From Theionarchaea archaeon (GTDB lineage Archaea; Methanobacteriota_B; Thermococci; Methanofastidiosales; SZ-28-30), in the NCBI GenBank assembly GCA_018992685.1, contig JACVGT010000011.1, positions 64,001 to 128,000 of the forward strand: a DNA stretch of 64,000 nucleotides. The letters are read 5' to 3'. Under the pieces are notes generated by a model. That model had not been told where the DNA came from and did not search any database. It saw only the letters and a program-made list of their open reading frames with translations. Each line of letters opens with the position of its first letter. The first letter of the stretch is position 1. Below are positions 4,422-25,455 of the stretch, in pieces. Both the position numbers and the translations under genes were made by a program.

Positions 4422-6680
4422 ATGCTCATGCGTTCCACATGGTTCGGTATCTTCTTCATATCTGCAGGAGCCCTCCTCTTTGAAGTTTCCCTGACCAGGA
4501 TCTTTTCCGTATCCCGCTGGTATCATTTTGCATTCATGGTAGTAAGCATCGCTTTGCTGGGATTTGCTGCCAGTGGTTCTCTGCTGAATCTCTATCCCAC
4601 CCTCAAGAGGAACAGGAATGCTCCCTTTATCTTATCCGTACTATTTTCTCTTTCTGTGGTGGTAAGTTTCTATGTGTCAGACAAGGTTGAAATGGATCCT
4701 TACAGGATCATGCTGGACCCCCTCCGTATCTCATACATCAGCATCTACTACGTGGTGCTGTCACTGCCATTCCTGATGGCGGGCTTGGTTATCAGCCTGT
4801 ATTTATCCACGCATTCTCAGAATGCAGGACAGATCTATGGGTTCAACCTGGCAGGCTCTGCAGCAGGGTGTTTACTGATTTTTGCCTTTTCTGCTGCAGG
4901 CTCAAACATCATCCTGGTAAGTTCTGTACTCGGTGCTGTGGGTTCCCTTTTCTTTGCCAGGAACGTCCAGAAACTTGCCTCACTTCTCGTCATTATTGCG
5001 TTGATTGGTTTACCCGGATCCCTGTTTGAGATCACCATGTCTCCGTACAAGTCGTTGTCCCTGGCTCTGAACTATCCCGAAGCCAGAATTCTGGATACAG
5101 AATGGAATGCAGTCTCCAGAGTGGATGTGGTGGAAAGCCCTTTGCGTCAGGCACCCGGACTCTCTCTGAAGTATGGTGAAGGGCTGGAACCAGCCCTGGG
5201 GACAACCATAGATGGAGATTCCATGTCTTCATTGTCAGAACCGGGTGCATTCGTAGAATATCTCCCCACTGCGGCAGCATACCTGAAAGGCCCCAATACA
5301 ATCCTCATTATTAACCCCCAGGGGGTGGATATCGCTGCGGCCAAGTATTTCAGTGCAGACATCACAGCAGCAGAAGGAAATCCGTTGCCCGTGAGAGCAA
5401 TACAACGATTCAGCAGCCTCTACGATGGCGTGACTGTCATACATGAGAACGGAAGAACGTATCTAGCTTCCACTGATGAACTGTTTGATATAATTCAGAT
5501 CTCCCTATCAGAGAGCATATTTGCCAGCTCTGTTGGGCTGTATGGGTTTAATGAGAGCTATTCCTTCACGGTGGAAGCATTTGAAGAATACTATGCTCAT
5601 TTGACTGAAGAGGGTATGGTGGTCATCACGCGGTGGCTGGTGATTCCTCCTCGAGAATTGCCCAAAGTGATCTCGCTCGTCATAGACACAGTACCTGAAC
5701 CTGAAACCCATCTTGCGGTATTCAGATCGTACTCCACTGTCACAGTACTGGTGAAGAAGACCCCCTTCGCTGAGTATGATGTAGACGGTCTTGCAGCATT
5801 TTGTAGGGATAGAGGATTTGACATGGTGTGGGCACCAGGAATTACTGCAGATGAGGTAAATGTGTATAACCGATTTCCTGAACCATACTTCTATCAGCTA
5901 ACCAAAGAACAACTCGATAACAACGCACAGGTGAAAAAGGACTATCTTTTTGCAGTTGAATCTCCCACTGATGATTCTCCTTTCTTCTTCAATTTCTTTC
6001 AGTGGAGAAAAGTGAACCAGGTAGTGGACTCTCTACAAGGGAAGTGGCAGCCCTTGTTTGAGGGAGGGTTCATGGCTGTGGCCATACTGGGACAGGCTGG
6101 CATCTTGTCTCTGGCCCTGGTTTTCATTCCGGCAAAAAGAGTCGCCTTTTCCCGGTTTACGCTGAGGTACTTTGGGTTAATTGGACTGGGCTTTATGTTC
6201 GTAGAGATCTCGCTCATGCAGCAGTTGATTCTCTTTCTGGGACAGCCGGTGTTCTCTGTCGCTATCGTCTTGTCCTGCATCTTGTTGTTTTCTGGATTGG
6301 GAAGCGTTGTGTCAGGGAGAATCGGGTGGAACAGGGGGTTTGTGGGGCTCTTGGGACTCCTGGCCGTTTTTGCTGTTGGGCTGTCAGCGGGCATTCATGA
6401 GCTGCTGGGAGTCTCCATGGGTTGGAAGATACTCATGACTGTGGGAATTCTGGGGCCTCTTTCTGTCTGCATGGGGATTCCGTTTCCTACAGGCATTGTC
6501 ACCGTTGGCGAGAACCAGGTTCCCTCAGCCTGGTGCATCAATGGATGCGCTTCTGTGTGTGGTTCAGTTCTGGCAATCATTGTGGCTCTGTCATTCGGGT
6601 TCCAGATAGTCTTGGCGTGTGGGGGAGTGTGCTACTTTTTCGCTTTCCTAGTACGGATGATACAGAAGGGCCAGACTTAG
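4422..6680 (+). CDS. Membrane protein with spermidine-synthase-like SAM-binding domain
   Basis: N-terminal TM block (FEVSLTRIFS...YHFAFMVVSIALLGF), central WNAVSRVDV / PTDDSPFFF, C-terminal TM block (GLGFMFVEI, AWCINGCASV). Start codon uncertain. Confidence 0.75.
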   Translation: MLMRSTWFGIFFISAGALLFEVSLTRIFSVSRWYHFAFMVVSIALLGFAASGSLLNLYPTLKRNRNAPFILSVLFSLSVVVSFYVSDKVEMDPYRIMLDPLRISYISIYYVVLSLPFLMAGLVISLYLSTHSQNAGQIYGFNLAGSAAGCLLIFAFSAAGSNIILVSSVLGAVGSLFFARNVQKLASLLVIIALIGLPGSLFEITMSPYKSLSLALNYPEARILDTEWNAVSRVDVVESPLRQAPGLSLKYGEGLEPALGTTIDGDSMSSLSEPGAFVEYLPTAAAYLKGPNTILIINPQGVDIAAAKYFSADITAAEGNPLPVRAIQRFSSLYDGVTVIHENGRTYLASTDELFDIIQISLSESIFASSVGLYGFNESYSFTVEAFEEYYAHLTEEGMVVITRWLVIPPRELPKVISLVIDTVPEPETHLAVFRSYSTVTVLVKKTPFAEYDVDGLAAFCRDRGFDMVWAPGITADEVNVYNRFPEPYFYQLTKEQLDNNAQVKKDYLFAVESPTDDSPFFFNFFQWRKVNQVVDSLQGKWQPLFEGGFMAVAILGQAGILSLALVFIPAKRVAFSRFTLRYFGLIGLGFMFVEISLMQQLILFLGQPVFSVAIVLSCILLFSGLGSVVSGRIGWNRGFVGLLGLLAVFAVGLSAGIHELLGVSMGWKILMTVGILGPLSVCMGIPFPTGIVTVGENQVPSAWCINGCASVCGSVLAIIVALSFGFQIVLACGGVCYFFAFLVRMIQKGQT

Positions 6681-12293: not shown

Positions 12294-15224
12294 ATGATTA
12301 AAGAATTCCACATTGAAGATGCCCAGAAGCTGGCTGACATGTTGAATAGGAGTGACGAAGCGTGGCCAGGGGGACTCACCCACGGCATAGACTTCACGGC
12401 AAAAAGCGTAATGGAAGATCGAAAAAGAGAGAGTATTCTTGCGACGTACTGTGCATGGGATGATGACAATATCGTGGGACTTACGGAAATCATCGAGTTC
12501 TGGAGAGATACCAATGTCCTGTATATCGACTTTCTCAACGTTGAACCCACCCATCATGGTCGAGGATATGGAAGAGATCTCCTCAAGACCTGTGTTGAGA
12601 AGGCTACTGAGTTGAAAAGTAAGAGACTGGATCTTCATACATGGTCAGGTAACATGAAAGCAGTTCCCCTCTACAAGAAGACAGGGTTTTTCTGGGTTCC
12701 TAAAACGTCTGTGCACATGAAGAATTTCCTCCCCTTGATCCTGAGCCTTCAGGCTGCCAAATTCTTCTTCGAAAAGCACAATTGGTATACTACCTTCAAG
12801 AGAGAACTGAAGGTTGAAGAAGATGACTATGATGGCATATATCCCTACCACTGGGAAGAAGCGGAGGATATCCTCTCTGTGGTGATAGATGCAGAATCAG
12901 GGGGGGTAATCCAGTTCGAAAACAACGATTTTACAGTCTACCAGAAGGTGGAACCCGTATTCGTGGGAGAAAAAGCTTCTGTGACATGGGAGATTAAGAA
13001 TAAGACCCCCACTCCCCTGGAGGTTGCATTGATATCTAGAGGAGAAGACGGTATTGTGATGGATTTCAGGAAATCCTTCACCGTTCAGGATGTCGAGACA
13101 GTGACGGCCACAGTCTCTGTTGACCCAGACATTGAAATCAGGAAAAAAGAGGAGCCTCCTCATCAGCTCTCTACCGACGTCATCATCAATGGAATACTTC
13201 TCCCTCTTGTTTCAGGATTGCGGGTAACTCATGGAGTAGAGGTCTCTACATTTCCCGAGTTTGTGGTGGTTCCTCCAGGCGAGCAGTCTATCATGGTGAT
13301 ACTCAAGAACAATAGGCAGAACCATGTTGAAGGGGTGATTACGTGCCAGAATACCGGTGAATCCCACGAGTTCAGTATAGAACCTGGATACAGCGAAGGT
13401 ATCCCCTTTACTCTGCGTTTGGCACGAGACTGTGAGCTGCGATTTTCCATAGAGGGCGCCCTGCCCATCCACATAGTACCCGTACGGGTGACGACGGGTG
13501 GCGCAGTACTAATGCAGAAAGGGAGAGACGTCATTCTTGAAAATGCTCACGCCAGAATGATTGTTTCGCTGGCGGGAGGGGAAACTTCCATCTTTGTGAA
13601 GAACACTCAAGAAATGGAGATCAAGTACGCCGGTGACGAACTGGGACCTCCGTACTGGCCATCAGAGTTGTTTAAAACATCGTACACGGTAAGAATGAAG
13701 CAGTGCACTGGCAAAGTTAGTGCAGAATTCACTGCCTACTCGAAAAAGTATGACACCACAGTTGTTCGTAAAGTTGAAATGGACGCTGGTCCTTTGATCA
13801 AAATCGAGTATTCCTTCACCCCACAAAGAGATCTTTACGTGCAGTTTGGCGGAGAGGCCAGTTTCGCCGGAGGGCTCTTAACTCTTCCGCTCACAGAGGG
13901 ATTCATTTCAGAACCTACTGTTGATGAGGATTTTCCTCTGGGTCATGGAGACCTTCCTGAAGACTCCACAGCATATGAAGAACAGTGGGCGTGCCACCAG
14001 ATGGGTGACGCAGTCCTCGGTGTCATATGGGAGAAATGCGTGAAAATGAACGTGAGTAGATATTCATTCCCCGGGATCATCCTGGACACCCGGAATCCGC
14101 GTCCATTCTACCTGTACGTGGGAAGAGGGACCTGGAAGGATGTGAGGAACAGCTGGTCTTTGCTGCACAACGTGGCGGTACCACCTGCGGAACCTAAAAG
14201 TGTGTGGGATGTCAGCCCTTCCCTGGTGGTGACTGTCGACGATATGATTACTGAGCAATTCACTCTCAGTAACAGGAGAAAAAGAACTCTGGAAGGGAAC
14301 GTAACCGGGATCCCTTTTAAAGCGGCGAGAGGGTCACCCTTTACCTTTGAAGCTGCCCTTGAGGCTCCAGACGTTGGCATCCACGAACGAGTTCTGCACA
14401 TGGAGACAGATCTCTTTTCCAGAAATATTCCCGTGATGGTTGTCAGAGCAGGAAAAAGGAGTAACGTCGTCGTCCTTGAAGAAGGAGATACCATACAGGT
14501 TAATAATGGATTATACCGGTTTGAAGTTGCTCCATCGTACTATGGATCAGTGGTCTTCTGGGGGGATAACGTGAACCACCTGCTGACCCCATATCCAGAG
14601 ACCACACAGCTTGCCTGGTTCCGCCCCTGGTATGGGGGGATCCATCCAGTCGTCTTTGCTGAAAAAAGAGATTTCCCTGGTCGAATGCATAAAGAAGCTT
14701 TCAGCTGCGCTATTGCAGAAAGAAAAACACACGGTATTTCATGGAAGGGCGTTACCGTGACATCTACCCTCCAGGAGATTAAGGGAATCGGCCTGGAAAC
14801 TTCCTACCTGACAGCAGGACACAGCAATCTTCTGGTCATCTGCCACACACTGAAGAATCTGACATCTGCCCCCCGTTCTGTGTATTCAGGAATGACATTT
14901 TTTGTACAGCCAGACGGTTCTCTAACAGATTCCACCTTGTACTACCGCAGCCCTCAATTGGTTCAAAGAAGACGAACCTCCTATGGAGGGCTATCAGCGG
15001 GCAGGGAATGGGCTGCGGTCCAAGGAACATCAACATTCCTCACCGTTGTGGCAGACAGTATTCATGCACTTGATCTGGGAAGAGAGGGCGCTCATATATT
15101 CAGCGCCAGAAAACGGGACATTCCCCCACACGGTTCTGTCACTGAATTCCAGTATTTAGTGGCAGCACACTCTCTGGAAGAATCGCAGGCATATAAGAGT
15201 TTGAGGGGATTGCAGTGGATCTAG
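12294..15224 (+). CDS. Large protein with N-terminal GNAT acetyltransferase domain
   Basis: LNVEPTHHGRGYGRDLL acetyl-CoA motif and NMKAVPLYKKTGF; long beta-rich C-terminal region unassigned. Confidence 0.8.
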   Translation: MIKEFHIEDAQKLADMLNRSDEAWPGGLTHGIDFTAKSVMEDRKRESILATYCAWDDDNIVGLTEIIEFWRDTNVLYIDFLNVEPTHHGRGYGRDLLKTCVEKATELKSKRLDLHTWSGNMKAVPLYKKTGFFWVPKTSVHMKNFLPLILSLQAAKFFFEKHNWYTTFKRELKVEEDDYDGIYPYHWEEAEDILSVVIDAESGGVIQFENNDFTVYQKVEPVFVGEKASVTWEIKNKTPTPLEVALISRGEDGIVMDFRKSFTVQDVETVTATVSVDPDIEIRKKEEPPHQLSTDVIINGILLPLVSGLRVTHGVEVSTFPEFVVVPPGEQSIMVILKNNRQNHVEGVITCQNTGESHEFSIEPGYSEGIPFTLRLARDCELRFSIEGALPIHIVPVRVTTGGAVLMQKGRDVILENAHARMIVSLAGGETSIFVKNTQEMEIKYAGDELGPPYWPSELFKTSYTVRMKQCTGKVSAEFTAYSKKYDTTVVRKVEMDAGPLIKIEYSFTPQRDLYVQFGGEASFAGGLLTLPLTEGFISEPTVDEDFPLGHGDLPEDSTAYEEQWACHQMGDAVLGVIWEKCVKMNVSRYSFPGIILDTRNPRPFYLYVGRGTWKDVRNSWSLLHNVAVPPAEPKSVWDVSPSLVVTVDDMITEQFTLSNRRKRTLEGNVTGIPFKAARGSPFTFEAALEAPDVGIHERVLHMETDLFSRNIPVMVVRAGKRSNVVVLEEGDTIQVNNGLYRFEVAPSYYGSVVFWGDNVNHLLTPYPETTQLAWFRPWYGGIHPVVFAEKRDFPGRMHKEAFSCAIAERKTHGISWKGVTVTSTLQEIKGIGLETSYLTAGHSNLLVICHTLKNLTSAPRSVYSGMTFFVQPDGSLTDSTLYYRSPQLVQRRRTSYGGLSAGREWAAVQGTSTFLTVVADSIHALDLGREGAHIFSARKRDIPPHGSVTEFQYLVAAHSLEESQAYKSLRGLQWI

Positions 15225-16225
15225 CACCAGAGCATGCTATAATAGCAAAGGGTGTTGTAAAGACATTCAGGAAAAAGGGACGTCGGAAATATGGGATAGG
15301 TCCGAAGATAACCCCGGATGAACTCATTTATGCAGTGAACGGTGTTGATCTTACCGTACGCAGGGGAGAACTTTTTGGGTTGTTGGGCCCCAATGGTGCG
15401 GGGAAAACCACTCTCGTAAAGTGTTTGTCCACCCTTCTCCTTCCCAACAAGGGGACTGCCATCATCAGTGGGCATGACATTATCAATGATCCTATTGCTG
15501 CCAGGGAGTGCATAGGGATTACCACAGGGGGAGAAAGGACATTGTACTGGAAGTTGTCAGGAAGAGATAATCTCAGATACTTTGCTGCCTTGTATGGACT
15601 CTCAAGCGAGGAAGCAGATAGGCGGATCAGCTACCTCATGAAGATCATGGGCCTGGAAGATAGGCAGTATGAACGCATTGAAAAATATTCCACAGGGATG
15701 CGCCAGAAAGTGTCCATTTCAAGAGCTCTGATCCATGATCCACCTGTTCTGCTGCTGGATGAGCCAACTCTGGGCCTTGATCCCTCGTTTTCTCGGTTCA
15801 TACGTTCTTTCATCAAGAAAGATTTGAACCAGAAGCAGAAAAAGACCATTATTCTTACCACGCACTATATGGACGAGGCAGATCAGCTGTGTGACCGTAT
15901 TGCCATTATGAATGAGGGGAAAATAGTGGCTGTGGATACACCCGAAGTCCTGAAGAGAAGGATACCCCAAGACGAGGTCCTGGAGGTCAGATGTCTGGGA
16001 CATGCTGATTTCTCCGGGATTGGACAGAGAGTGTATGCAGATTCTGTAGAAGGAGTGACCATATACCGAATTCATGCAGAAAATGTGGAAGATATCATGT
16101 CACAGGTGATACAGGCTGCTCACTCAGCAAAGATTCTCTCCATGAATGTTACCAAGCCCACCTTGGAGGATGTATTCATACATCTGACAGGGGCACGCCT
16201 GACAGGTGAGGACAATGAGCAGTGA
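15215..16225 (+). CDS. ABC transporter ATP-binding protein (DrrA-like)
   Basis: GPNGAGKT, YSTGMRQK, LLLDEPT, TTHYMDEAD. Confidence 0.92.
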   Translation: MDLAPEHAIIAKGVVKTFRKKGRRKYGIGPKITPDELIYAVNGVDLTVRRGELFGLLGPNGAGKTTLVKCLSTLLLPNKGTAIISGHDIINDPIAARECIGITTGGERTLYWKLSGRDNLRYFAALYGLSSEEADRRISYLMKIMGLEDRQYERIEKYSTGMRQKVSISRALIHDPPVLLLDEPTLGLDPSFSRFIRSFIKKDLNQKQKKTIILTTHYMDEADQLCDRIAIMNEGKIVAVDTPEVLKRRIPQDEVLEVRCLGHADFSGIGQRVYADSVEGVTIYRIHAENVEDIMSQVIQAAHSAKILSMNVTKPTLEDVFIHLTGARLTGEDNEQ

Positions 16226-17036
16226 ATTGTTTCTGGTGAAAGAAGAAATCAAGAAAAATATTAAGATACTGTTGTGCTACCCAGTGGAGATCATGTTCTG
16301 GGCCATTTTTCCCATCCTGTGGGTTATCCCCTTTATTTTTCAGGGCGAGGCACTGGTGGGAGGTTCTACCAGTTCTCAATTCAAGGAATTGGCAGGGACG
16401 GAGCAATTCATCCCTTTTGTGTTGATAGGAGCTATCATATCTACATATTTGTTCTCCTCTCTGTATGGGATGGGAGGAAGTATTCGCATGGAATCGTACT
16501 GGGGTACCCTGGAGTACATTCTGGGGAGCCCTGCTCGCAAGATCTCTGTGCTCATGGGGAAAGCTCTCAGCGAGTCGATTTCTTCCACGTTCTTTGTGGC
16601 CACCCAGGTTCTCATATGCGTATTCGGGTTCGGGCTGAAACTAACGGTAGCAAAGGTTTTGCCGATCCTCCTGGTGCTGCTTCTGCTGGTGGCGGGATTG
16701 TACGGGATGGCTATTGCCCTTGCAGGAGTGACGCTGCAGATAAAGGAAAGCAGATCACTGGTCCATACCATAGAATATTTATTCTATCTGTTCTCGCCCA
16801 TCAGGTATCCCGTGGGAATAAACCCAGTGATTGCCACTGTTTCACTGGTGATACCCCTGACGTATGCCTTGATTGCAATCAGAGGGATATGGCTCCTAAA
16901 CCAGCCTATGTCAACCTTGTGGGGATACGTTGGGCTGCTGGCTCTCTTAGATGTGATATTCATTGGCGTGGGATATACAATCTTTTACTACATGGAAAAA
17001 AGGGTGAGGAAAAGTGGATCTGTTTCCCAGTACTAG
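16215..17036 (+). CDS. ABC-2 type permease
   Basis: ESYWGTLEYILGSP motif; about six TM helices. Confidence 0.88.
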   Translation: MSSELFLVKEEIKKNIKILLCYPVEIMFWAIFPILWVIPFIFQGEALVGGSTSSQFKELAGTEQFIPFVLIGAIISTYLFSSLYGMGGSIRMESYWGTLEYILGSPARKISVLMGKALSESISSTFFVATQVLICVFGFGLKLTVAKVLPILLVLLLLVAGLYGMAIALAGVTLQIKESRSLVHTIEYLFYLFSPIRYPVGINPVIATVSLVIPLTYALIAIRGIWLLNQPMSTLWGYVGLLALLDVIFIGVGYTIFYYMEKRVRKSGSVSQY

Positions 17037-17865
17037 CCGGATTCTGCGGTATCTGCGCGGCATGAATGCTGAGAATGTAAAAGAATGGAAGATTGAGCTA
17101 ACGTACAGGGCAGATTTTATCAGGGGAATGCTGGAGCCCTTGATTTTTGTATTTCCCTTCGTGCTATTTGCCATGTCGCTCATGGGTGGAAGGACATCCT
17201 CCGTTCTGGAAGGGCTGACTGGCGTGTCTGATGGTATCACCTACACCATCATTGGATACATCTTCATGGGATTTCTGAATACTGCAGTCTGGGGCATGGG
17301 ATTTGCCCTCAGGAAGGAACAATGGTACGGGACCCTGGAGTCTATATTTGTTGCCCCTGTTCCCAGATGGGTATATGTTCTGGGAATGGCCCTCCATTCT
17401 ACTGTCCATCAGGGGATCATATTGTTCTTCCAGATCCTGGTAGTCTACGTCTTATTCGGTGTGATACTCAATGTCCAGGGAGTTCTGCCTGTTCTTGTGT
17501 TCATTGCTCTCATGTTGATATCGTTGGTGGGGCTGGGGCTCATGGTTTCTGGGCTGGCCCTCATATTCAAAGAAGGATGGATTGTCTCAGAAGTCTTGTA
17601 CTCTTTGATTACTATTGTGACACCAATTGCATATCCTCTGGCCGTGCTTCCCCCTTTGCTCCAGAAGATATCTCTGACCATGCCCACGACGTATGCCATT
17701 ACGGGGATCCGTCACTTCTTGATTGATGAGAATATGGGAGTGGGATTGTTGGATTCATACTCCCGGCTGATTATCATCGGAGTGTGCTGGATTATCACGG
17801 GATTGCTTATATTTCAGATAGTGGACAGAAAAGTGAGAAGGGAAGGGACTCTGGCAGAGTACTAG
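17014..17865 (+). CDS. ABC-2 type permease
   Basis: EQWYGTLESIFVAP and YPLAVLPP motifs. Confidence 0.88.
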   Translation: MDLFPSTSRILRYLRGMNAENVKEWKIELTYRADFIRGMLEPLIFVFPFVLFAMSLMGGRTSSVLEGLTGVSDGITYTIIGYIFMGFLNTAVWGMGFALRKEQWYGTLESIFVAPVPRWVYVLGMALHSTVHQGIILFFQILVVYVLFGVILNVQGVLPVLVFIALMLISLVGLGLMVSGLALIFKEGWIVSEVLYSLITIVTPIAYPLAVLPPLLQKISLTMPTTYAITGIRHFLIDENMGVGLLDSYSRLIIIGVCWIITGLLIFQIVDRKVRREGTLAEY

Positions 17866-18019: not shown

Positions 18020-19123
18020 ATGGCAGACATAAGAATGGAACGACTGGCAGATCTCATTGTCAATTATTCGGTGAGTGCACAGAAAGGACAGGAAATTTTC
18101 ATCATTGGGCCAACCATCTCCTACCCCATGATTGAACAGCTGTACAAATATGTTCTGCTGGCAAAAGCATATCCCACCGTGATTTTCCTGGATGAACGGC
18201 TGGATGATATTCAGTTTCGTTACGGGGAGGATCACCAGCTGCAGCATGTTCCCTTGCTTTCCAGGCATGCAGTGGAGGAAGCAGACATTCTGATCAGGGT
18301 AAAAGCAGAGCGGAACCCCAGACACTTGGCGAATGTGGAAACAGGGAAAATAGCTAAAAATGTTGCATCAAGGAGGGAAATTTCTGACATCATGTCGGAA
18401 CGAATTAGAAAGGGAGAACTGTCCTGGAACCTGGTGCCCTTCCCCACGGAATCAATGGCACAGGAAGGTTCCATGAATCTTATGGACTATGAAGACTTCG
18501 TTTATAAGGCCTGCTTTGCTCATGTCGATGAACCCAAGAAGGAATGGATGAAAGTCTCTGAACATCAGCAAAAAATCGTCGACTACCTTGGCAGGAAATC
18601 AGAACTTCGATACGTAGGAGAAGACACAGATATTACCTTTGCCATCAAGGGACGCATCTGGATAAATGCAGACGGGAAAAAGAACATGCCTGATGGCGAA
18701 GTGTTCACTGGTCCACTTGAGGATTCAGCAGAAGGTACCATCAGGTTCACATATCCTGCAATCTATAGCGGCAATGAAGTAGAAGACATCAGATTGACCT
18801 TCAAGAAAGGAGTAGTCACAGAGGCCAGAGCCAGGAAAGGCGAAGAACTGCTTCGCCAGATGGTGGGACTGGACGAAGGATCAAACAGAGTTGGCGAAGT
18901 GGCTATCGGAACCAATTATGAGGTTACTCAGTTCACCAAGGACATGCTCTTTGACGAGAAGATGGGCGGAACCATCCACATGGCGCTAGGAAGAGGAATA
19001 CCAGAGACCGGCAGTGAAATCATGTCAGCCATACACTGGGATATGTTGAAGGACATGAGAAAGGGCGGGAAAATCTTTGCCGACGGAGAATTGTTCTACG
19101 AAAATGGGAAATTCCTAATCTAA
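18020..19123 (+). CDS. Aminopeptidase, M29 (AmpS/AmpT) family
   Basis: NMPDGEVFTGP, GEVAIG, LFDEKMGGTIHMALG, SAIHWDM. Confidence 0.92.
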   Translation: MADIRMERLADLIVNYSVSAQKGQEIFIIGPTISYPMIEQLYKYVLLAKAYPTVIFLDERLDDIQFRYGEDHQLQHVPLLSRHAVEEADILIRVKAERNPRHLANVETGKIAKNVASRREISDIMSERIRKGELSWNLVPFPTESMAQEGSMNLMDYEDFVYKACFAHVDEPKKEWMKVSEHQQKIVDYLGRKSELRYVGEDTDITFAIKGRIWINADGKKNMPDGEVFTGPLEDSAEGTIRFTYPAIYSGNEVEDIRLTFKKGVVTEARARKGEELLRQMVGLDEGSNRVGEVAIGTNYEVTQFTKDMLFDEKMGGTIHMALGRGIPETGSEIMSAIHWDMLKDMRKGGKIFADGELFYENGKFLI

Positions 19124-19891: not shown

Positions 19892-20151
19892 CTATTATTA
19901 ATCGGCGTGAATGAGGTATGTCAGTCTTCAATAAAAAAGAGAAAGGAGGATGATATGGCGCAATACTATTATTAATCAATAGTATATAAAGCTTTCGGTT
20001 CATGACTCATATTTCGTCCTGATCACTTCACTTCATAAGCACATTCATTCAACCATTGCACGAAGTGGGACCTTCTCCTATGGAAAAACTCCTGAAATCC
20101 CCTCTTATTTTTTTCATCATCCATTCTCATTATTACACGACAGTTTAAATA

Positions 20152-20167
20152 GAAACCTTTTTAAATA
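20152..20167 (+). promoter_or_regulatory. BRE/TATA promoter of the RiPP precursor
   Basis: GAAACCTTTTTAAATA about 45 nt upstream of the ATG; RBS AAGGAGGTG at 20196-20204. Confidence 0.6.
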
Positions 20168-20210
20168 ATCCATATCATAAGTAATAGATAAGCTAAAGGA
20201 GGTGTAACAA

Positions 20211-20351
20211 ATGATAAATGTGCCTATGGTATTTGAGGGTCCTGCCCTGCTGGCCAACACAATGGTTCCGTTAGGGCGGGGGACTAATGTCTGCTGCTAC
20301 AATGATACTGATGGAGACTACTACTGCTGCATCAAGACTGAAGTCCTATAA
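20211..20351 (+). CDS. Putative RiPP precursor peptide, 46 aa (MINVPMVFEGPALLANTMVPLGRGTNVCCYNDTDGDYYCCIKTEVL)
   Basis: Translated by hand; below the ORF-track cutoff. Strong RBS, own promoter and T-rich terminator, Cys/Asp/Tyr-rich C-terminal core, directly upstream of rSAM/SPASM and RRE genes. Confidence 0.85.
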   Translation: MINVPMVFEGPALLANTMVPLGRGTNVCCYNDTDGDYYCCIKTEVL

Positions 20352-20358
20352 AGAATTG

Positions 20359-20382
20359 TTTTTTCTCTTTTTTTGTCTTTTT
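20359..20382 (+). terminator. Oligo-T terminator after the precursor
   Basis: TTTTTTCTCTTTTTTTGTCTTTTT. Confidence 0.6.
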
Positions 20383-20591
20383 CCGATTTGGGAAATACGT
20401 TGTGAATGGGGAGGTTGTGCTAGTGTCATTCAAAAGTCGTCTATCTTGTCAGGGTGAGATTATACATTCATATGCAATCAGACGGTCATGTGATTGCCAT
20501 GGAAGCAGAATCAGAATCGTACCTTGTGTCATAAGAGTCCAGTGGTTCTCTTCGTATCCCTTTTGTCCCCTCTCCACAGAGACGTGGTAGC

Positions 20592-21680
20592 ATGCTGGCA
20601 AAAGTGGAATTGACGGCCCGCTGCAATTTGAACTGTATGCACTGCAGCGCATCCATTTATAGACCCTCTCCAGAATGGAAGACAAGCCAATTACTAGGGC
20701 TACTTGAACAGCTCATAGATAATGGATATGATAGCTTCGATCTCAAAGGGGGTGAACCGTTTATCCGTTCTGACATATTCGAGATATTGGATTTCCTGGA
20801 ACGACACGATGCTTCATTCTTTCTTTCCACCAATGGACTTCTTCTTGATGAAGAAAAGATACGCAGGGTGCTCTCCTATCAGAGGCTTTCGACCTTCACT
20901 GTCAGTCTTGACGGCGCAACGAAAGAGACACACGAGGCCATGAGAGGAAAGGGCACATTTCATCCAACTCTAGAAATCATTAGGAGGATCGCTGAAACAA
21001 GAGAAATGCTAGGTTCACAGATACGGTTTGGTCTCAACTATGCCCTGACAAAGGTCAACTACCAGGAAATCAAAGATGTCTTTCACCTTGCAGATGAGCT
21101 TGGATTCAGTGCAGTGTTTGTTCTCTGCCTGTCTCTTATCGGCAACGCTCTTGAACATAAGGGTGACCTGTTCTTGCTAGAAAGAGACGAGCTTGCTGCG
21201 CTGAAGGAAGGAGCCACTGTTCTGAGGAAGATAGATATTGCTCGTCAGATCAGAGGGCTGTCTCCACTCGAATTCAACGTTGAGTTGTTCCCCTATAAAT
21301 GGAAGTGCCGGCTGATGAAATGGTCAGGACATTACAAAGGTTTCATAACAAAGAACCAGTGTAGTGCTGGGGTCAGCGAAATATATGTCGGAGCCGACGG
21401 TACAATCTATCCGTGTGAAGGAGTGAGAGTCTTTCTGAAGATGGTGGAAGAGGAAGTTGGACATTACACACGACCAAGTGTTTGGAATTATACAATCAAT
21501 GAGGCGAGACAGGAGGAATCTTTCAAGAAGATTGTAGACTTCCTCCATGATTACGACCGATTGTTTGAGTCCATAGAGCCCTGCAACACATGCGAACACC
21601 TCAGAAAATGTACAATATGTCCCCTGTTTGCCCGGGCAGACGGAAAGGTGAATAGATGCACAGAAGAGGTGTTGATTTGA
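20592..21680 (+). CDS. Radical SAM/SPASM-domain peptide maturase 1
   Basis: CNLNCMHC, GGEP, STNG, SLDG; SPASM CSAG...GTIYPC and CNTC...CTICP...C. Confidence 0.9.
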   Translation: MLAKVELTARCNLNCMHCSASIYRPSPEWKTSQLLGLLEQLIDNGYDSFDLKGGEPFIRSDIFEILDFLERHDASFFLSTNGLLLDEEKIRRVLSYQRLSTFTVSLDGATKETHEAMRGKGTFHPTLEIIRRIAETREMLGSQIRFGLNYALTKVNYQEIKDVFHLADELGFSAVFVLCLSLIGNALEHKGDLFLLERDELAALKEGATVLRKIDIARQIRGLSPLEFNVELFPYKWKCRLMKWSGHYKGFITKNQCSAGVSEIYVGADGTIYPCEGVRVFLKMVEEEVGHYTRPSVWNYTINEARQEESFKKIVDFLHDYDRLFESIEPCNTCEHLRKCTICPLFARADGKVNRCTEEVLI

Positions 21681-21771
21681 TGTATTATTTCGAGATCTTT
21701 TCACGCGAGCAAAGACGTTGGATGAATGGAGCTGGAGTACTCTTCAGAAGATCTGGAATCTGGGTGACGTC

Positions 21772-22893
21772 ATGAAGGTGAGACTTGACATTACAACTCG
21801 GTGTAACCTCAATTGCCTCCATTGTGGAGCGACGGAATTCAAGACAGAGAGAGAATGGACAACTGAGGAAGCACTCCAAGCTTTTGAGAGCATGATTTCT
21901 TATGGTATAGACCACTTTGATTTTCTAGGCGGAGAGCCATTTATTCGCAAGGACATCCTGGAACTTTTCTCCCATTTGAGTGATCAAGGCGCGAGGATTC
22001 TCGTGGTTACCAATGGTCTACTCCTGAATGAGGAAATTATTGATTTTCTGGCCAATCTGGAAACCTTCTCCGGAATTTCTGTGAGCATTGATGGGGCATC
22101 AAGAGAAGTGCATGAGACTATTCGCGGCAAAAATACATTTGACCGTACTGTAGCGAATGTACAGGCCCTGTTATCCAGAAGAAATAGGAGAACCCCATCG
22201 TTCACTGTTGGCCTTACCTGTGTTTTGAATCGGATGAATGTTCTGGAATCTGGCGCAATGATGGAACTGGCGGATCAGATTGATGTGGATAGTGTTTCAT
22301 TCACACCTATGGGATGGATTGGCAATGCCAGGAAAAACAAAGATGACCTGTATATAGACCCCCAGGAAGAGTTCACCGCCTATGATAAGGCAATTCGCAG
22401 AGTAATCCAGATTAACAGAGTTCGTGCAATTAAGGGAAAACATCCTTTACGGTTTCCTATCGATAGCATACCTTTCACCTGGAAATATCACTTTGTGAAA
22501 AAGTATCCCTTGGTTCACCAGATAAGTGGTAAATTCAAGTGCTTGGCTGGAACGGGGACATTTCACGTGGACGGTTCAGGAGTGTTGTACCCCTGCGAGG
22601 CTGTCAAAATTCATAGAGCATCAATAGAGTCTGAGATCGGGGAGTACAGGAGCATGTCTCTGCCCGAGTACACCTTTGAAGAGATTGTCAAGAGTGGATT
22701 TTTCAAGAAAACTGTAGCATACATAAGAGATAGACATCATCTGACCGAGAACGTTGTACCATGTAAAGACTGCAAGTACGGTGATGGATGCAGCGTCTGC
22801 CCACTTCATGCGAGGTCTGAAGGAATCGTCCGTAATTGTGTGGAAGATACCATGAAGGGTGTAGTTGAAAGAGGTGATCTGCTTGAATCCTGA
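21772..22893 (+). CDS. Radical SAM/SPASM-domain peptide maturase 2 (paralog of maturase 1)
   Basis: CNLNCLHC, GGEP, VTNG, SIDG; SPASM CLAG...GVLYPC and CKDC...CSVCP...C; RBS GGTGA. Confidence 0.9.
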   Translation: MKVRLDITTRCNLNCLHCGATEFKTEREWTTEEALQAFESMISYGIDHFDFLGGEPFIRKDILELFSHLSDQGARILVVTNGLLLNEEIIDFLANLETFSGISVSIDGASREVHETIRGKNTFDRTVANVQALLSRRNRRTPSFTVGLTCVLNRMNVLESGAMMELADQIDVDSVSFTPMGWIGNARKNKDDLYIDPQEEFTAYDKAIRRVIQINRVRAIKGKHPLRFPIDSIPFTWKYHFVKKYPLVHQISGKFKCLAGTGTFHVDGSGVLYPCEAVKIHRASIESEIGEYRSMSLPEYTFEEIVKSGFFKKTVAYIRDRHHLTENVVPCKDCKYGDGCSVCPLHARSEGIVRNCVEDTMKGVVERGDLLES

Positions 22894-23497
22894 AACAACA
22901 TATGTACACTTAGGTGAAGACGTCTACTGGCACAGGGATGTTTCAAGAGTGTATATTTTCTCTGAGAAGACAGGAGAATCCATGCAAGGAAACATGACAG
23001 CAGGTAGAATCATGGAGCTCTCCGATGGAACCCGCTCTGTTGAAGAGATCGGGAAAACACTCCTGAGAGAGTTCACAGAAGGTCCGAGCTTTGAGGAGAT
23101 TCTAGAATTGGTCACTGACTTCCTCCTAGAATGTGAAAACAGAGGGTTTGTAGAACTACGAGCATCCCCGGCAGAGAAGCCTTCCTCCAGAGATCTCAAG
23201 GAATTTACACACGCTGATGTTGAAAGACTTCTCGAGGACAATGCTGTTCTGATCATAGATGAGACGGCATCTTTTGAGCTCAAAGAAGACGACAGTCTGA
23301 TTACGTACAGCGCCAGGGATGGCGAGTACCTGAAGCTCAGTAAAGAAGAGAAAGAAATCCTCACAATAATGCTGGAGGAGAAACCACTTCAGGAGGTACT
23401 CTCCGATTTTTCACAAGAGCACAAGGAAGGGTCCAGAGATATTCTCGTGGAATTCGCAACACAGTTGCTTAACAGGGGATTGGCAAGAATACAGTGA
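22883..23497 (+). CDS. Tandem PqqD/RiPP recognition element (RRE) protein
   Basis: GNMTAGRIMELSDGTRSVEEI...FLLECENRGFV is PqqD-like; second repeat LSKEEKEIL...FATQLLNRGLA. TTG start after RBS GAGGTGA. Confidence 0.8.
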   Translation: MNPETTYVHLGEDVYWHRDVSRVYIFSEKTGESMQGNMTAGRIMELSDGTRSVEEIGKTLLREFTEGPSFEEILELVTDFLLECENRGFVELRASPAEKPSSRDLKEFTHADVERLLEDNAVLIIDETASFELKEDDSLITYSARDGEYLKLSKEEKEILTIMLEEKPLQEVLSDFSQEHKEGSRDILVEFATQLLNRGLARIQ

Positions 23498-23634: not shown

Positions 23635-25455
23635 ATGATCCTGCAGAGCACAGTACCTTATAGAGAAGACATTCCTAATGCTGCATTAGGATATCTCAAA
23701 GGGTTTCTCACAGCAGAAGGCATTCCTGTCACTGCTCTTTACTGGAACCTCATTCTGGCCCGCAAGATTTCGGAATTTTACAGAGTACTGGCAGATTATT
23801 CGAAGGAGATGGGATTGTTTCATCCCGAGTCCGTTGGGCTATATATTTGCAGGAATCTGCTGACTGACCATTCTGATAATTCCAACCCAACAAAATTTGA
23901 TCTGATTTTCTCATCGATTTTTTCAAGAGAAGAGAGATCAGAGATGATCAGCTCAATACAGGATGAGATTTATCAGTATATCCAGAGGAACAGATTGCAT
24001 GAGGTACCTGTTGTTGGATTCACCTTGAAGACATATCAATGGATGCTGGGTTCCTACTTGATCCAGTGTTTCAAAGAGATGAACACTGATGTCACTATTG
24101 TGATAGGTGGGATTACTGATGAGTCCCAGGCAATCACCTACATGAAGATATTTGAATTGGCTGATTTTGCCATCTGGGGAGAGGGTGAATTCCCACTGGT
24201 GCACCTCGTGAGAACTCTGGAAGAAGGTACAGACGTTTCCGGAGTGCCTAACCTTGTATATCGGAGTGATAAGACCATTCTTTCGACAAAAGTATTTGGT
24301 GACTCGTACTCCCTCCTTGATTCATATCCTTTTGCAGATCACTCTGATTATTTTGAAACTGTGAGGAGGTTCGATCCTTTCAGGAAATACGTCACTATTC
24401 CCATATGGGGAAGCAGGGGCTGCCCATGGGACAGATGCAAATTCTGCACTTCGAGCGGAGGATACAAGTATCGCTTCCGCTCACCGGAAAACATTGTTGA
24501 AGAGATAGAGGTCCAGTCAAAAAAACACCGTGCGGACGACTTCATTTTCGTGGATACTGAACTTGCAGGCAACAAGAAGAGATTCTTGAGTCTTCTGAGA
24601 CTGCTCATGCAGAGTATCGTCAGTAGAAAAAGACCATATCGACTGAGTGGGGAAATATCTCCTCTTTCAATAGACAGAGAGACGGCGCAATACATAAAGC
24701 GTGCGGGATTCGTCAGCCTGCAGATTGGATTTGAGGCAGTCACTGACACACTCTTGAGAAAGATGCAGAAGAGGCAGATGATTGTTCACAACATTGAGAC
24801 ACTAAAGATCGGAGGTCAACATTCGCTACCTCTGAGAGGTCTCAACATCATTAGGGGAATTCCAACAGAAACCGCAGGCGATGTTCTGGAAAGTTGTATT
24901 AATTTGAAATTTTGGCGGTTCCTTCTATCTGATTTTCGTATCAGGCCCACTTTCTTCTTGCTGCACAAGAGATCTCTCTTTGACAGAGAGATGGCAGAAG
25001 AGGAAAAAGAGAAATGGAAGGCGGATTCACTCTGGGATGAGATTGTTCCAGCCCGTCTCGTGCCTGAATCTGATCGATTTGAATTCTCAAGTTTTCGAAG
25101 GGATCGGTTTGACCACCATCACCTGTGGGATATTTTTGAAGATCTCTTGATGTTCTATACAAAACAGAAAAGTTCCTATGAATGGATTGAATACCCAGAT
25201 GGTTCTCTTGTCGAAGAAAAAGGATTCAGAACCCACAAGCTCGCACTCAATCGAGAGCAGACAGATATTTTGGCTTTCTGCGATTCAGTAAAATCACTGT
25301 GTGATGTGGAAGAGAAATTCTCTCACTTGTGTGAGAATGAACTCTTTGAACTTTTAAATGGTCTGAAGACTTTGGGATTACTCTATTACGATAAGGAAAG
25401 CGGCAAGGCCATTTCGATTCTCGACACATCTAAAAGAAGAACTGAAGCGGGCTGA
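23635..25455 (+). CDS. B12-binding radical SAM enzyme (class B methyltransferase-like) with possible C-terminal RRE
   Basis: PNAALGYLK...VIGG...GEGE cobalamin domain; SRGCPWDRCKFC; QIGFE; C-terminal EQTDILAFCD...LNGLKTLGLLY. Confidence 0.85.
   Translation: MILQSTVPYREDIPNAALGYLKGFLTAEGIPVTALYWNLILARKISEFYRVLADYSKEMGLFHPESVGLYICRNLLTDHSDNSNPTKFDLIFSSIFSREERSEMISSIQDEIYQYIQRNRLHEVPVVGFTLKTYQWMLGSYLIQCFKEMNTDVTIVIGGITDESQAITYMKIFELADFAIWGEGEFPLVHLVRTLEEGTDVSGVPNLVYRSDKTILSTKVFGDSYSLLDSYPFADHSDYFETVRRFDPFRKYVTIPIWGSRGCPWDRCKFCTSSGGYKYRFRSPENIVEEIEVQSKKHRADDFIFVDTELAGNKKRFLSLLRLLMQSIVSRKRPYRLSGEISPLSIDRETAQYIKRAGFVSLQIGFEAVTDTLLRKMQKRQMIVHNIETLKIGGQHSLPLRGLNIIRGIPTETAGDVLESCINLKFWRFLLSDFRIRPTFFLLHKRSLFDREMAEEEKEKWKADSLWDEIVPARLVPESDRFEFSSFRRDRFDHHHLWDIFEDLLMFYTKQKSSYEWIEYPDGSLVEEKGFRTHKLALNREQTDILAFCDSVKSLCDVEEKFSHLCENELFELLNGLKTLGLLYYDKESGKAISILDTSKRRTEAG

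Follow-up and report, generated by a model that had tools for sequence, protein, structure and literature searches.

What is encoded by a 46-amino-acid open reading frame (ORF) that carries two pairs of adjacent cysteines and lies upstream of radical S-adenosylmethionine (rSAM) enzyme genes in a Theionarchaea archaeon? The ORF is found in a 64,000-nucleotide stretch of DNA (GenBank assembly GCA_018992685.1, contig JACVGT010000011.1, positions 64,001 to 128,000 of the forward strand), and this whole stretch is called the window herein. A preliminary description had regarded the ORF as the unannotated precursor of a modified peptide. We conclude with high confidence that it is a precursor peptide, and the neighboring rSAM enzymes very probably modify it. 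Taking the mechanism proposed below as a whole, we favor on balance the view that the ORF encodes the precursor of an undescribed archaeal family of rSAM-modified RiPPs (peptides that are made on the ribosome and modified after translation), in which thioether linkages would be formed at two G-x3-CC units. The label “unannotated” needs correction, as an identical 46-amino-acid protein is already present, nameless, in NCBI, nr, and Logan. The gene has been called previously and never interpreted. The precursor gene, the parts of its product, and its ribosome-binding site are located as follows.

20211-20351, plus strand: precursor peptide gene, 46 amino acids (ORF reading, family alignment, hidden Markov model)
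20211-20279, plus strand: leader, approximately residues 1-23 (F8 and P11 invariant)
20280-20348, plus strand: core, G24-L46 (alignment)
20280-20297, plus strand: core motif 1, G24-T-N-V-C28-C29, a G-x3-CC unit (G24, C28, and C29 invariant; 13 of 13 members)
20313-20330, plus strand: core motif 2, G35-D-Y-Y-C39-C40, a G-x3-CC unit (G35, C39, and C40 invariant; 13 of 13 members)
20198-20204, plus strand: Shine-Dalgarno site GGAGGTG, 6 nucleotides before the ATG (sequence reading)

The translation of the ORF is MINVPMVFEGPALLANTMVPLGRGTNVCCYNDTDGDYYCCIKTEVL. The residue patterns listed in the preliminary description (C28C29-x9-C39C40, C28-x3-D32, C40-x3-E44, Y30-x-D32, and D32-T-D-G-D36) can each be read in it.

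When used alone as a query against a collection of 5.8 billion proteins, the precursor recovers only itself. Relatives were reached through rSAM-1, the enzyme encoded next to it: an alignment of the rSAM-1 family led to a scan of metagenome contigs, and this was followed by small-ORF scans of four loci. Eight homologous peptides adjoin the enzymes in these loci, with L094 and L097 contributing two each and L095 four. No precursor was observed in the small-ORF scan of L096, where the upstream flank is only 250 nucleotides long. When the 5.8-billion-protein collection was searched with a profile built from nine peptides, it yielded ten proteins, including four new sequences. The family thus comprises 13 distinct members, which are the window peptide and 12 further homologues from metagenome contigs and protein collections. 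Some of the enzyme and peptide orthologues are named Theionarchaea archaeon in NCBI.

Residues M1, F8, P11, G24, C28, C29, G35, C39, and C40 are invariant among nine aligned peptides. Conservation in the leader is centered on M-x6-F-x2-P, and the core is conserved at glycine and cysteine only. The pattern G-x3-CC-x5-7-G-x3-CC is present in all 13 members, as are F8 and P11 of the leader. Among the 6.05 million residues of the six-frame translation of the genome, this pattern occurs once, in this ORF; CC-x9-11-CC alone occurs 27 times. A hidden Markov model of the 12 other members, run against the 89,032 stop-to-stop frames of the genome, identifies the window frame (E 4.3e-6) as the sole significant match, with the next best at 0.18. 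The window peptide is an outlier of the family, being no more than 48% identical to any other member. For the single orthologous pair of equal length, the ratio of nonsynonymous to synonymous change (pN/pS) is 0.21, from 11.5 synonymous versus 8.5 nonsynonymous differences.

The surroundings of the gene are conserved as well. Precursors adjoin rSAM-1 or rSAM-2 orthologues in all four loci with sufficient flanking sequence, namely the window, with its one precursor, and the three loci that yielded the eight homologues. The sequence GGAGGTG precedes each of the nine family precursor genes available as DNA, 5 to 8 nucleotides before the ATG. The alignment of homologous precursors therefore bears out the central claim of the preliminary description: The ORF is conserved in frame, with its Shine-Dalgarno site and motif, beside orthologous enzymes, and its identity as a precursor is supported by the 12 homologues, the shared ribosome-binding sequence, and the pN/pS value of the one pair. 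It is extremely improbable that this small frame arose by chance or is regulatory, with a product that goes unmodified, since conservation of frame, Shine-Dalgarno site, and motif extends over 13 members located beside orthologous enzymes. The features expected of RiPP precursors in general are all found, including a conserved leader, a variable core, adjoining modifying enzymes, and a PqqD-type RiPP recognition element (RRE) domain. The window peptide matches no NCBIfam family at E values up to 10, and the homologue P0183 gives no usable match in the protein atlas. In a crude scan around a further 19 rSAM/SPASM genes in this genome, no small ORF with cysteine and a preceding Shine-Dalgarno site resembles a precursor.

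The precursor gene is the first of a five-gene cassette on one strand. The two radical-SAM/SPASM enzymes that had been placed downstream are present as claimed, and they are accompanied by a PqqD protein and by a third rSAM enzyme, which is of the B12 type.

20592-21680, plus strand: rSAM-1, radical-SAM/SPASM enzyme, 362 amino acids (Pfam PF04055, E 4.5e-21)
21772-22893, plus strand: rSAM-2, radical-SAM/SPASM paralogue, 373 amino acids (35% identical to rSAM-1)
22865-23497, plus strand: PqqD/RRE protein, 210 amino acids (PF05402, E 4.9e-8 on residues 31-96)
23635-25455, plus strand: B12-binding radical-SAM enzyme (B12-rSAM), 606 amino acids, akin to RiPP C-methyltransferases (TIGR03975)

SPASM domains are recognized by a seven-cysteine motif, C-x9-15-G-x4-C ... 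C-x2-C-x5-C-x2/3-C ... C. Both rSAM-1 and rSAM-2 carry this C-terminal motif together with CxxxCxxC, which starts at residue 11 (residues 11-18), and they share C257, C275, C331-x2-C334-x5-C340-x2-C343, and C356. Neither has an N-terminal RRE fused to it. There are eight auxiliary-cluster cysteines in rSAM-1 and seven in rSAM-2. The length of rSAM-2 is counted from the ATG at 21772, and a TTG at 21718 is an alternative start. The extra cysteine, C239, is nearly invariant in rSAM-1 and missing from rSAM-2. Seven such cysteines leave one iron of an auxiliary cluster free to bind a thiolate of the substrate, which is the situation in CteB, and eight permit full ligation; for the two enzymes of the cassette this is no more than a hint. 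The Pfam SPASM match of rSAM-1 is weak (19 bits versus a cut-off of 21.5).

No cassette protein reaches the cut-off of a curated family. Among the best 25 of 66 NCBIfam matches for rSAM-1 and the best 25 of 77 for rSAM-2, the matches are mixed and low in score (AhbD, WgkB, ScmE, StsB, MftC). The top match is heme b synthase AhbD for rSAM-1 (101.9 bits versus 500) and ScmE for rSAM-2 (95.8 bits versus 400). Nineteen relatives are 52-65% identical to rSAM-1, counting a fragment of 248 amino acids; beyond them, identity drops to 37% or less. For rSAM-2, orthologues in L094 (58%) and L097 (60%) were found, and its best non-self representative is a member of the rSAM-1 family at 35%. In a quick tree, rSAM-1 (19 rows) and rSAM-2 (3 rows) each form a supported clade, with the window enzyme as the earliest branch of the rSAM-1 clade; the tree leaves the sisterhood of the two clades open. 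All ten of the nearest rSAM relatives outside the families score below every family cut-off.

The PqqD/RRE protein has orthologues at 54-61% identity. With 210 residues it is about double the ordinary length; discrete RREs are described as shorter than 100 residues in the accessible text of PMC7470986. Its N-terminal PqqD domain is clear. The N- and C-terminal halves can be aligned with each other from end to end (BLASTP E 0.025; hhalign E 0.024, with a probability of only 2%), and the C-terminal half gives a Pfam PqqD match in one of three orthologues (E 2.2e-4). As judged from these alignments, the protein is probably a tandem RRE whose C-terminal half is a second, diverged PqqD-like domain.

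Comparison of the loci indicates which parts of the cassette are constant. L094, L095, and L096 each contain an rSAM-1 orthologue (59-61% identity), and L097 contains an rSAM-2 orthologue plus the 3′ part of rSAM-1 at the start of the contig. The gene order in L094 is rSAM-1, rSAM-2, the PqqD protein, and two precursors; in L095 two precursors, rSAM-1, and two more precursors; and in L097 an rSAM-1 gene truncated by the contig end, one precursor, rSAM-2, a second precursor, and the PqqD protein. RRE orthologues are thus found in the window, L094, and L097, and no PqqD gene is seen in L095 before the contig ends. A B12-rSAM is found in the window and in L097, where it is 53% identical, on the opposite strand, and ∼0.8 kb further along. 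A tblastn search did not find it on the L094 and L095 contigs, of which L094 runs 2.5 kb past the RRE gene. The rSAM-2 gene of L095 (2433-2886) is almost wholly deleted, with the first ∼80 and the last ∼57 nucleotides left, and that of L094 (3480-4466) has an in-frame gap of 34 residues that removes the C-x2-C-x5-C-x2-C motif. These defects may be natural loss variants or assembly artifacts. If the metagenome assemblies are faithful, rSAM-2 is sometimes lost, and rSAM-1 is then the constant partner of the precursor. The division of labor between two enzymes suggested in the preliminary description is no more than a possibility.

Which residues of the core are modified? The preliminary description drew attention to the Cx3D and Cx3E motifs and to the aromatic residues. 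The corresponding explanation is a PapB-like ranthipeptide in which C28 is linked to D32 and C40 to E44 (sulfur to C-beta or C-gamma), while the second enzyme makes aromatic cyclophanes. According to the accessible text of PMC9413430, PapB acts on Cys/Asp or Cys/Glu pairs, and the window peptide indeed offers one Cx3D and one Cx3E. However, it is the only member with two such motifs. One or more Cx3[DE] motifs are present in 7 of the 13 cores, compared with 3.5 expected from shuffles in which the cysteines keep their places, and in five cores with a single acidic residue this residue lies exactly at C+4. The motif is missing from the other six cores, one core has no Asp or Glu at all, and the position of the motif is not conserved. 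Because the 13 peptides form only about six related groups, the enrichment is weak, although an Asp or Glu acceptor may be used in some members.

The aromatic residues fare no better as a shared target. Triceptides are defined by an aromatic-x-x core motif, but 2 of the 13 cores lack aromatic residues and the aromatic positions are unconserved in the others, so aromatic cyclophane chemistry is not the shared reaction of the family. Furthermore, the enzymes reach no cut-off of a curated ranthipeptide, sactipeptide, or cyclophane maturase family and have no fused RRE. We consider the PapB-like explanation distinctly unlikely. A leader cleavage site after the sequence GRG had also been suggested, yet only its last residue (G24) is conserved. 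Since G24 is the first residue of a G-x3-CC motif that is repeated at G35, a role in recognition or modification seems more apt for it than one in cleavage.

Cysteine is the more plausible target because the core conserves only Gly and Cys, and not Asp, Glu, or aromatic residues. By analogy with related systems, the invariant Gly residues and Cys pairs are most likely the sites of modification, via thioether rings. The nearest solved structures by sequence are SkfB (E 2.1e-15), CteB (5wgg, E 3.5e-10), the archaeal lipid synthase Tes, and PqqE, and the first two of these enzymes form thioethers. Formation of thioethers by rSAM enzymes on Cys-rich substrates, including in archaea, is described in the accessible portions of PMC13692751 and PMC9413430.

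Several points weigh against this reading. The thioether assignment is made by analogy. The structural matches cover only the radical-SAM core (approximately residues 4-170) and include enzymes that do not form thioethers. The leading curated match of rSAM-1 is a heme b synthase, and all such matches fall far below their cut-offs. With its eight auxiliary cysteines, rSAM-1 fits SPASM enzymes that have fully ligated clusters and make no thioethers no less well than it fits CteB with its open site, and the symmetric CC...CC arrangement is unlike the hairpin of known sactipeptides, in which one half carries the donors and the other the acceptors. The evidence for the second RRE domain is weak by the hhalign probability already given, and rSAM-2 is damaged or missing in two of the four relative loci, whether this is real or an artifact of assembly.

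An alternative is other rSAM chemistry at the G-x3-CC units, such as oxidation of Cys to a reactive aldehyde or thioaldehyde, C-C or C-N cross-links, epimerization, or a cross-link that joins the Cys pairs. The low and mixed curated-family scores, the eight auxiliary cysteines of rSAM-1, and the isolation of the enzyme clades (with all ten nearest outside relatives under every cut-off) are consistent with such a reaction, and rSAM/SPASM enzymes catalyze many reaction types (accessible text of PMC10114670). In contrast, Cys is the usual sulfur donor in Cys-rich cores modified by rSAM enzymes, and the closest solved relative is a sactisynthase. We regard a different chemistry as unlikely, while giving it more weight than the PapB-like explanation.

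For the favored thioether reading, the following sequence of events can be proposed. The PqqD/RRE protein would bind the leader (residues 1 to ∼23, with the invariant F8-x2-P11) and would present the core to the rSAM enzymes, which lack RREs of their own. In or beside each G-x3-CC unit, these enzymes would abstract a hydrogen atom from a carbon and then join that carbon to a Cys sulfur. Such C-S coupling would employ the four invariant cysteines and yield small thioether rings. The best candidate for the acceptor is the invariant Gly that precedes each Cys pair by four residues, unless this Gly is a required turn residue. In this scheme, rSAM-1 would be the core enzyme and rSAM-2 an accessory one, and the B12-rSAM would add C-methyl groups. 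Removal of the leader would be carried out by an unlinked protease, which is proposed because the cassette encodes no protease or exporter.

A more specific and more ambitious version of this proposal can also be formulated. The family could be a new RiPP class of Theionarchaea-like archaea with a novel type of cross-link, in which the Cys pair of every G-x3-CC unit is linked to the C-alpha of the invariant Gly upstream of it in acceptor-first order, possibly with both sulfurs on one carbon, and in which two paralogous RRE-less rSAM/SPASM enzymes are served by a double-RRE chaperone and the product is C-methylated by the B12-rSAM. We consider this version speculative and, in its entirety, unlikely to be correct.

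The composition of the cassette bears on whether the product is an exported natural product at all. An intracellular cofactor or metal-binding peptide, made by the logic of PQQ or mycofactocin biosynthesis, would be compatible with a cassette that has no transporter or protease. No conserved gene of either kind was found beside the cassette among the loci compared, and an ABC ATPase near L097 is not a conserved partner, its identity to one located 4 kb upstream in the window being just 29%. A discrete PqqD protein combined with RRE-less rSAM/SPASM enzymes corresponds to the PqqE/PqqD layout, and vicinal Cys pairs are good metal ligands. However, the relatives carry two to four divergent precursor genes per locus with variable cores, and multiple divergent precursors of this kind speak for a natural product that diversifies and against a single cofactor. 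The distribution is also patchy, with 1 of 133 species genomes positive and two genomes of the same genus without a match. A cofactor or metal-binding role is therefore highly unlikely, and a natural product modified by thioether formation remains our preferred interpretation.

How does the cassette compare with known systems? It resembles thioether RiPPs in its presumed working, and SynChlorMet (SCM) and PqqE/PqqD in its layout. Like ranthipeptides (PapB/freyrasin) and SCIFF/CteB, it combines a small Cys-rich core that follows a leader with an rSAM/SPASM maturase, and short rings of the Cys-x3-acceptor type are possible. Unlike those systems, it has no conserved Cx3D/E and no fused RRE, and its conserved G-x3-CC unit may place the acceptor N-terminal to the cysteines. 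The peptide matches no SCIFF precursor model at E values up to 10 and has four cysteines versus six in SCIFF. The maturases of the SCIFF/PapB lineage have an N-terminal fused RRE, which is not found here, and no cut-off for them is reached among the best 25 NCBIfam matches.

The sactipeptide maturases SkfB, AlbA, and StsB are also related, as SkfB is the best match in the PDB and StsB is among the top NCBIfam matches. If the Gly C-alpha serves as the acceptor, the linkage would be a sactionine. The StsB scores of the two rSAM enzymes are 87.6 and 85.5 bits, short of the cut-off of 625, and no SkfB or AlbA model is present among the best 25 NCBIfam matches of each enzyme.

The SCM cassette (ScmE, ScmF, ScmD) is similar in having two RRE-less rSAM/SPASM paralogues and a PqqD-like protein. 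Its family description gives a distribution in archaea and bacteria and no identified precursor. Scores for these families are again far under their cut-offs. Against ScmE (TIGR04250, cut-off 400), rSAM-1 reaches 90.3 bits and rSAM-2 reaches 95.8; the corresponding values for ScmF (TIGR04251, cut-off 400) are 70.4 and 56.3, and the ScmD score is 19.7 (TIGR04248, cut-off 100). A literature search for SynChlorMet returned only unrelated single-cell papers.

PqqE/PqqD and MftC/MftB share with the cassette a discrete PqqD-type chaperone that serves an RRE-less rSAM/SPASM enzyme. In those systems, however, the PqqD protein is half as long, and the targets are Glu/Tyr or Val/Tyr of a single cofactor precursor, whereas the predicted targets here are Cys pairs of multiple, variable precursors. 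The nearest archaeal precedent is CrpC/CrpA of Methanococcus voltae, in which an rSAM/SPASM enzyme is reported, in the accessible text of PMC13692751, to install ranthionine on a Cys-repeat substrate. This is nevertheless a different system. As presented there, the large protein CrpA contains a repeat of the form C-x-x-Q/D, and CrpC, a member of TIGR04463, has a predicted RRE; here the substrate has 46 amino acids, the RRE is separate, and the motif is another one. Finally, the B12-rSAM aligns with nearly the full TIGR03975 profile of C-methyltransferases (12-587 against 12-598 of 606) and scores 156.3 bits against a cut-off of 281.85, which makes it a relative but not a member by the curated rule. 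The gene that follows it, on the opposite strand, encodes GatE (829 bits versus a cut-off of 456), which marks the host as an archaeon.

Several candidates were set aside. A 55-amino-acid frame at 20423-20590 was not counted as a gene, as the other loci have no homologue of it. Conservation is poor in the spacer that separates the precursor from rSAM-1. A known defense system was rejected, since PADLOC reports only partial matches of both rSAM enzymes to the viperin rSAM core and a weak PDC-M51A match for the B12-rSAM (E 2.1e-5). A search of Rfam gave one sub-threshold snoRNA match within rSAM-2 (21.6 bits versus 40, E 0.48), which was dismissed.

The DNA on either side of the precursor gene contains candidate signals for transcription.

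20144-20151 and 20160-20167, plus strand: two TTTAAATA boxes, candidate archaeal TATA boxes, 44-60 nucleotides before the ATG (sequence only)
19968-19999, plus strand: promoter-like repeated element (ATTnnTAATCAATAsTATATAAAGCT TTCGGT) with a TATA-like box (repeat copies)
20359-20382, plus strand: T6, T7, and T5 runs, possible archaeal oligo-T termination signal (sequence after the stop codon)

The repeated element points at the precursor and lies 243 nucleotides upstream of its ATG. In its fuller form it is ∼45 nucleotides long (TCATT-ATTGnTAATCAATAsTATATAAAGCT-TTCGGT, 19964-20005), and from its composition we infer that it is a promoter. Eight copies of the 26-nucleotide core with no more than four mismatches are present in the genome, with copies before unrelated genes on C1, C10, C14, C21 (two), C24, and C27, and similar CAAnCGATACATTTATA elements are found before precursors and rSAM-1 in L095 and L096. 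The element may be a strong promoter or operator used in common. In other samples, many short contigs match the element alone. Long contigs (11.9-19.6 kb) from the sequencing runs X7, X12, and X14 are identical to the window over 19950-20005 and then run on into a common sequence unlike that of the window; a search of the window for this shared continuation did not find it. The comparison covered contigs only, and stretches of the window that these runs leave uncovered carry no weight as evidence. This divergence to the right of the element hints that the cassette may be strain-variable in close relatives. A repeat search revealed no convincing direct repeats that flank the cassette as a mark of insertion.

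A contig of another run, X11, which is from sediment, has GTG in place of ATG as the start codon at 20211, and the remaining ORF is identical; its depth is below 5, and the change could be an error. The same contig has eight listed differences (nine counted) in 19950-20516, with none inside 20212-20351. These differences were discarded as evidence of selection because the chance that no more than one of nine would hit the ORF is ∼0.3 by our arithmetic and because of the low depth.

A terminator after the peptide gene had been noted in the preliminary description. As a hairpin it does not hold up, since no terminator-like sites are found and the fold z-score is +1.05, and T-runs are present instead. 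Archaeal RNA polymerase is known to terminate at T-runs. T-rich tracts also follow three other precursors of the family that end a unit (L094 5157, L094 5571, and L095 636). The T-runs after the precursor gene could yield precursor transcript in excess of enzyme transcript.

Some neighboring genes are noted as observations in their own right. Upstream of the cassette, at 12294-17865 and 18020-19123, lie genes for a 976-amino-acid protein whose N-terminal domain is of the GNAT type, for an ABC ATPase with two ABC-2 permeases, and for an M29 aminopeptidase. Because these genes are not conserved beside the cassette in relatives, they are probably unrelated to it, although the M29 aminopeptidase could trim the leader. 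In L095 (1044-1163) and L096 (118-237), a 39-amino-acid ORF with a GGAGGTGA site, three cysteines, and the start MVQIQGESLCY is located directly upstream of rSAM-1. It is not conserved in the window or L094 and could be a second precursor type. Beside the B12-rSAM of L097 there is a 328-amino-acid ORF (5570-6556, minus strand) that has no Pfam match and a 63%-identical copy on C8 of the window genome. We suspect from its sequence that it encodes a transposase, which, if true, would fit a mobile cassette.

The positive genome among the 133 species genomes, a set drawn from the class and phylum and searched with both rSAM-1 and the peptide profile, is that of the window itself. No match was found in the two genomes of the same genus (88% and 84% complete) or in one genome of the same family (91% complete). 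A collection of genome contigs contains no orthologue, the best match being 38% identical over the core. Sequencing runs with at least half of the sampled cassette words are labeled as marine sediment metagenome, as sediment metagenome, or by a code, and the source sample may be among them. At E values up to 0.001, rSAM-1 has 30 matches in its own genome, 40 and 33 in two congeners, and 2-8 in other genomes of the class. Several of these genomic matches are in adjacent pairs, and the lineage is rich in rSAM/SPASM genes.

Our literature searches returned no description of this family. An archaeal RiPP survey (PMC12144867) does not mention Theionarchaea in its accessible text, where functional characterization of predicted archaeal RiPP clusters is said to be still limited. 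The cassette described herein is compact and testable, with five genes and a sharply defined substrate motif (G-x3-CC, present twice). To our knowledge, few archaeal radical-SAM RiPPs have been characterized. The 13 natural core variants, together with the natural variants that lack rSAM-2, constitute a ready design for probing isolated rSAM/SPASM clades. If the chemistry is new, it would add a further type of cross-link and a double-RRE mode of recognition to the RiPP toolbox. If the linkage is an ordinary sactionine or ranthionine, the finding would extend those classes to an uncultured archaeal lineage.

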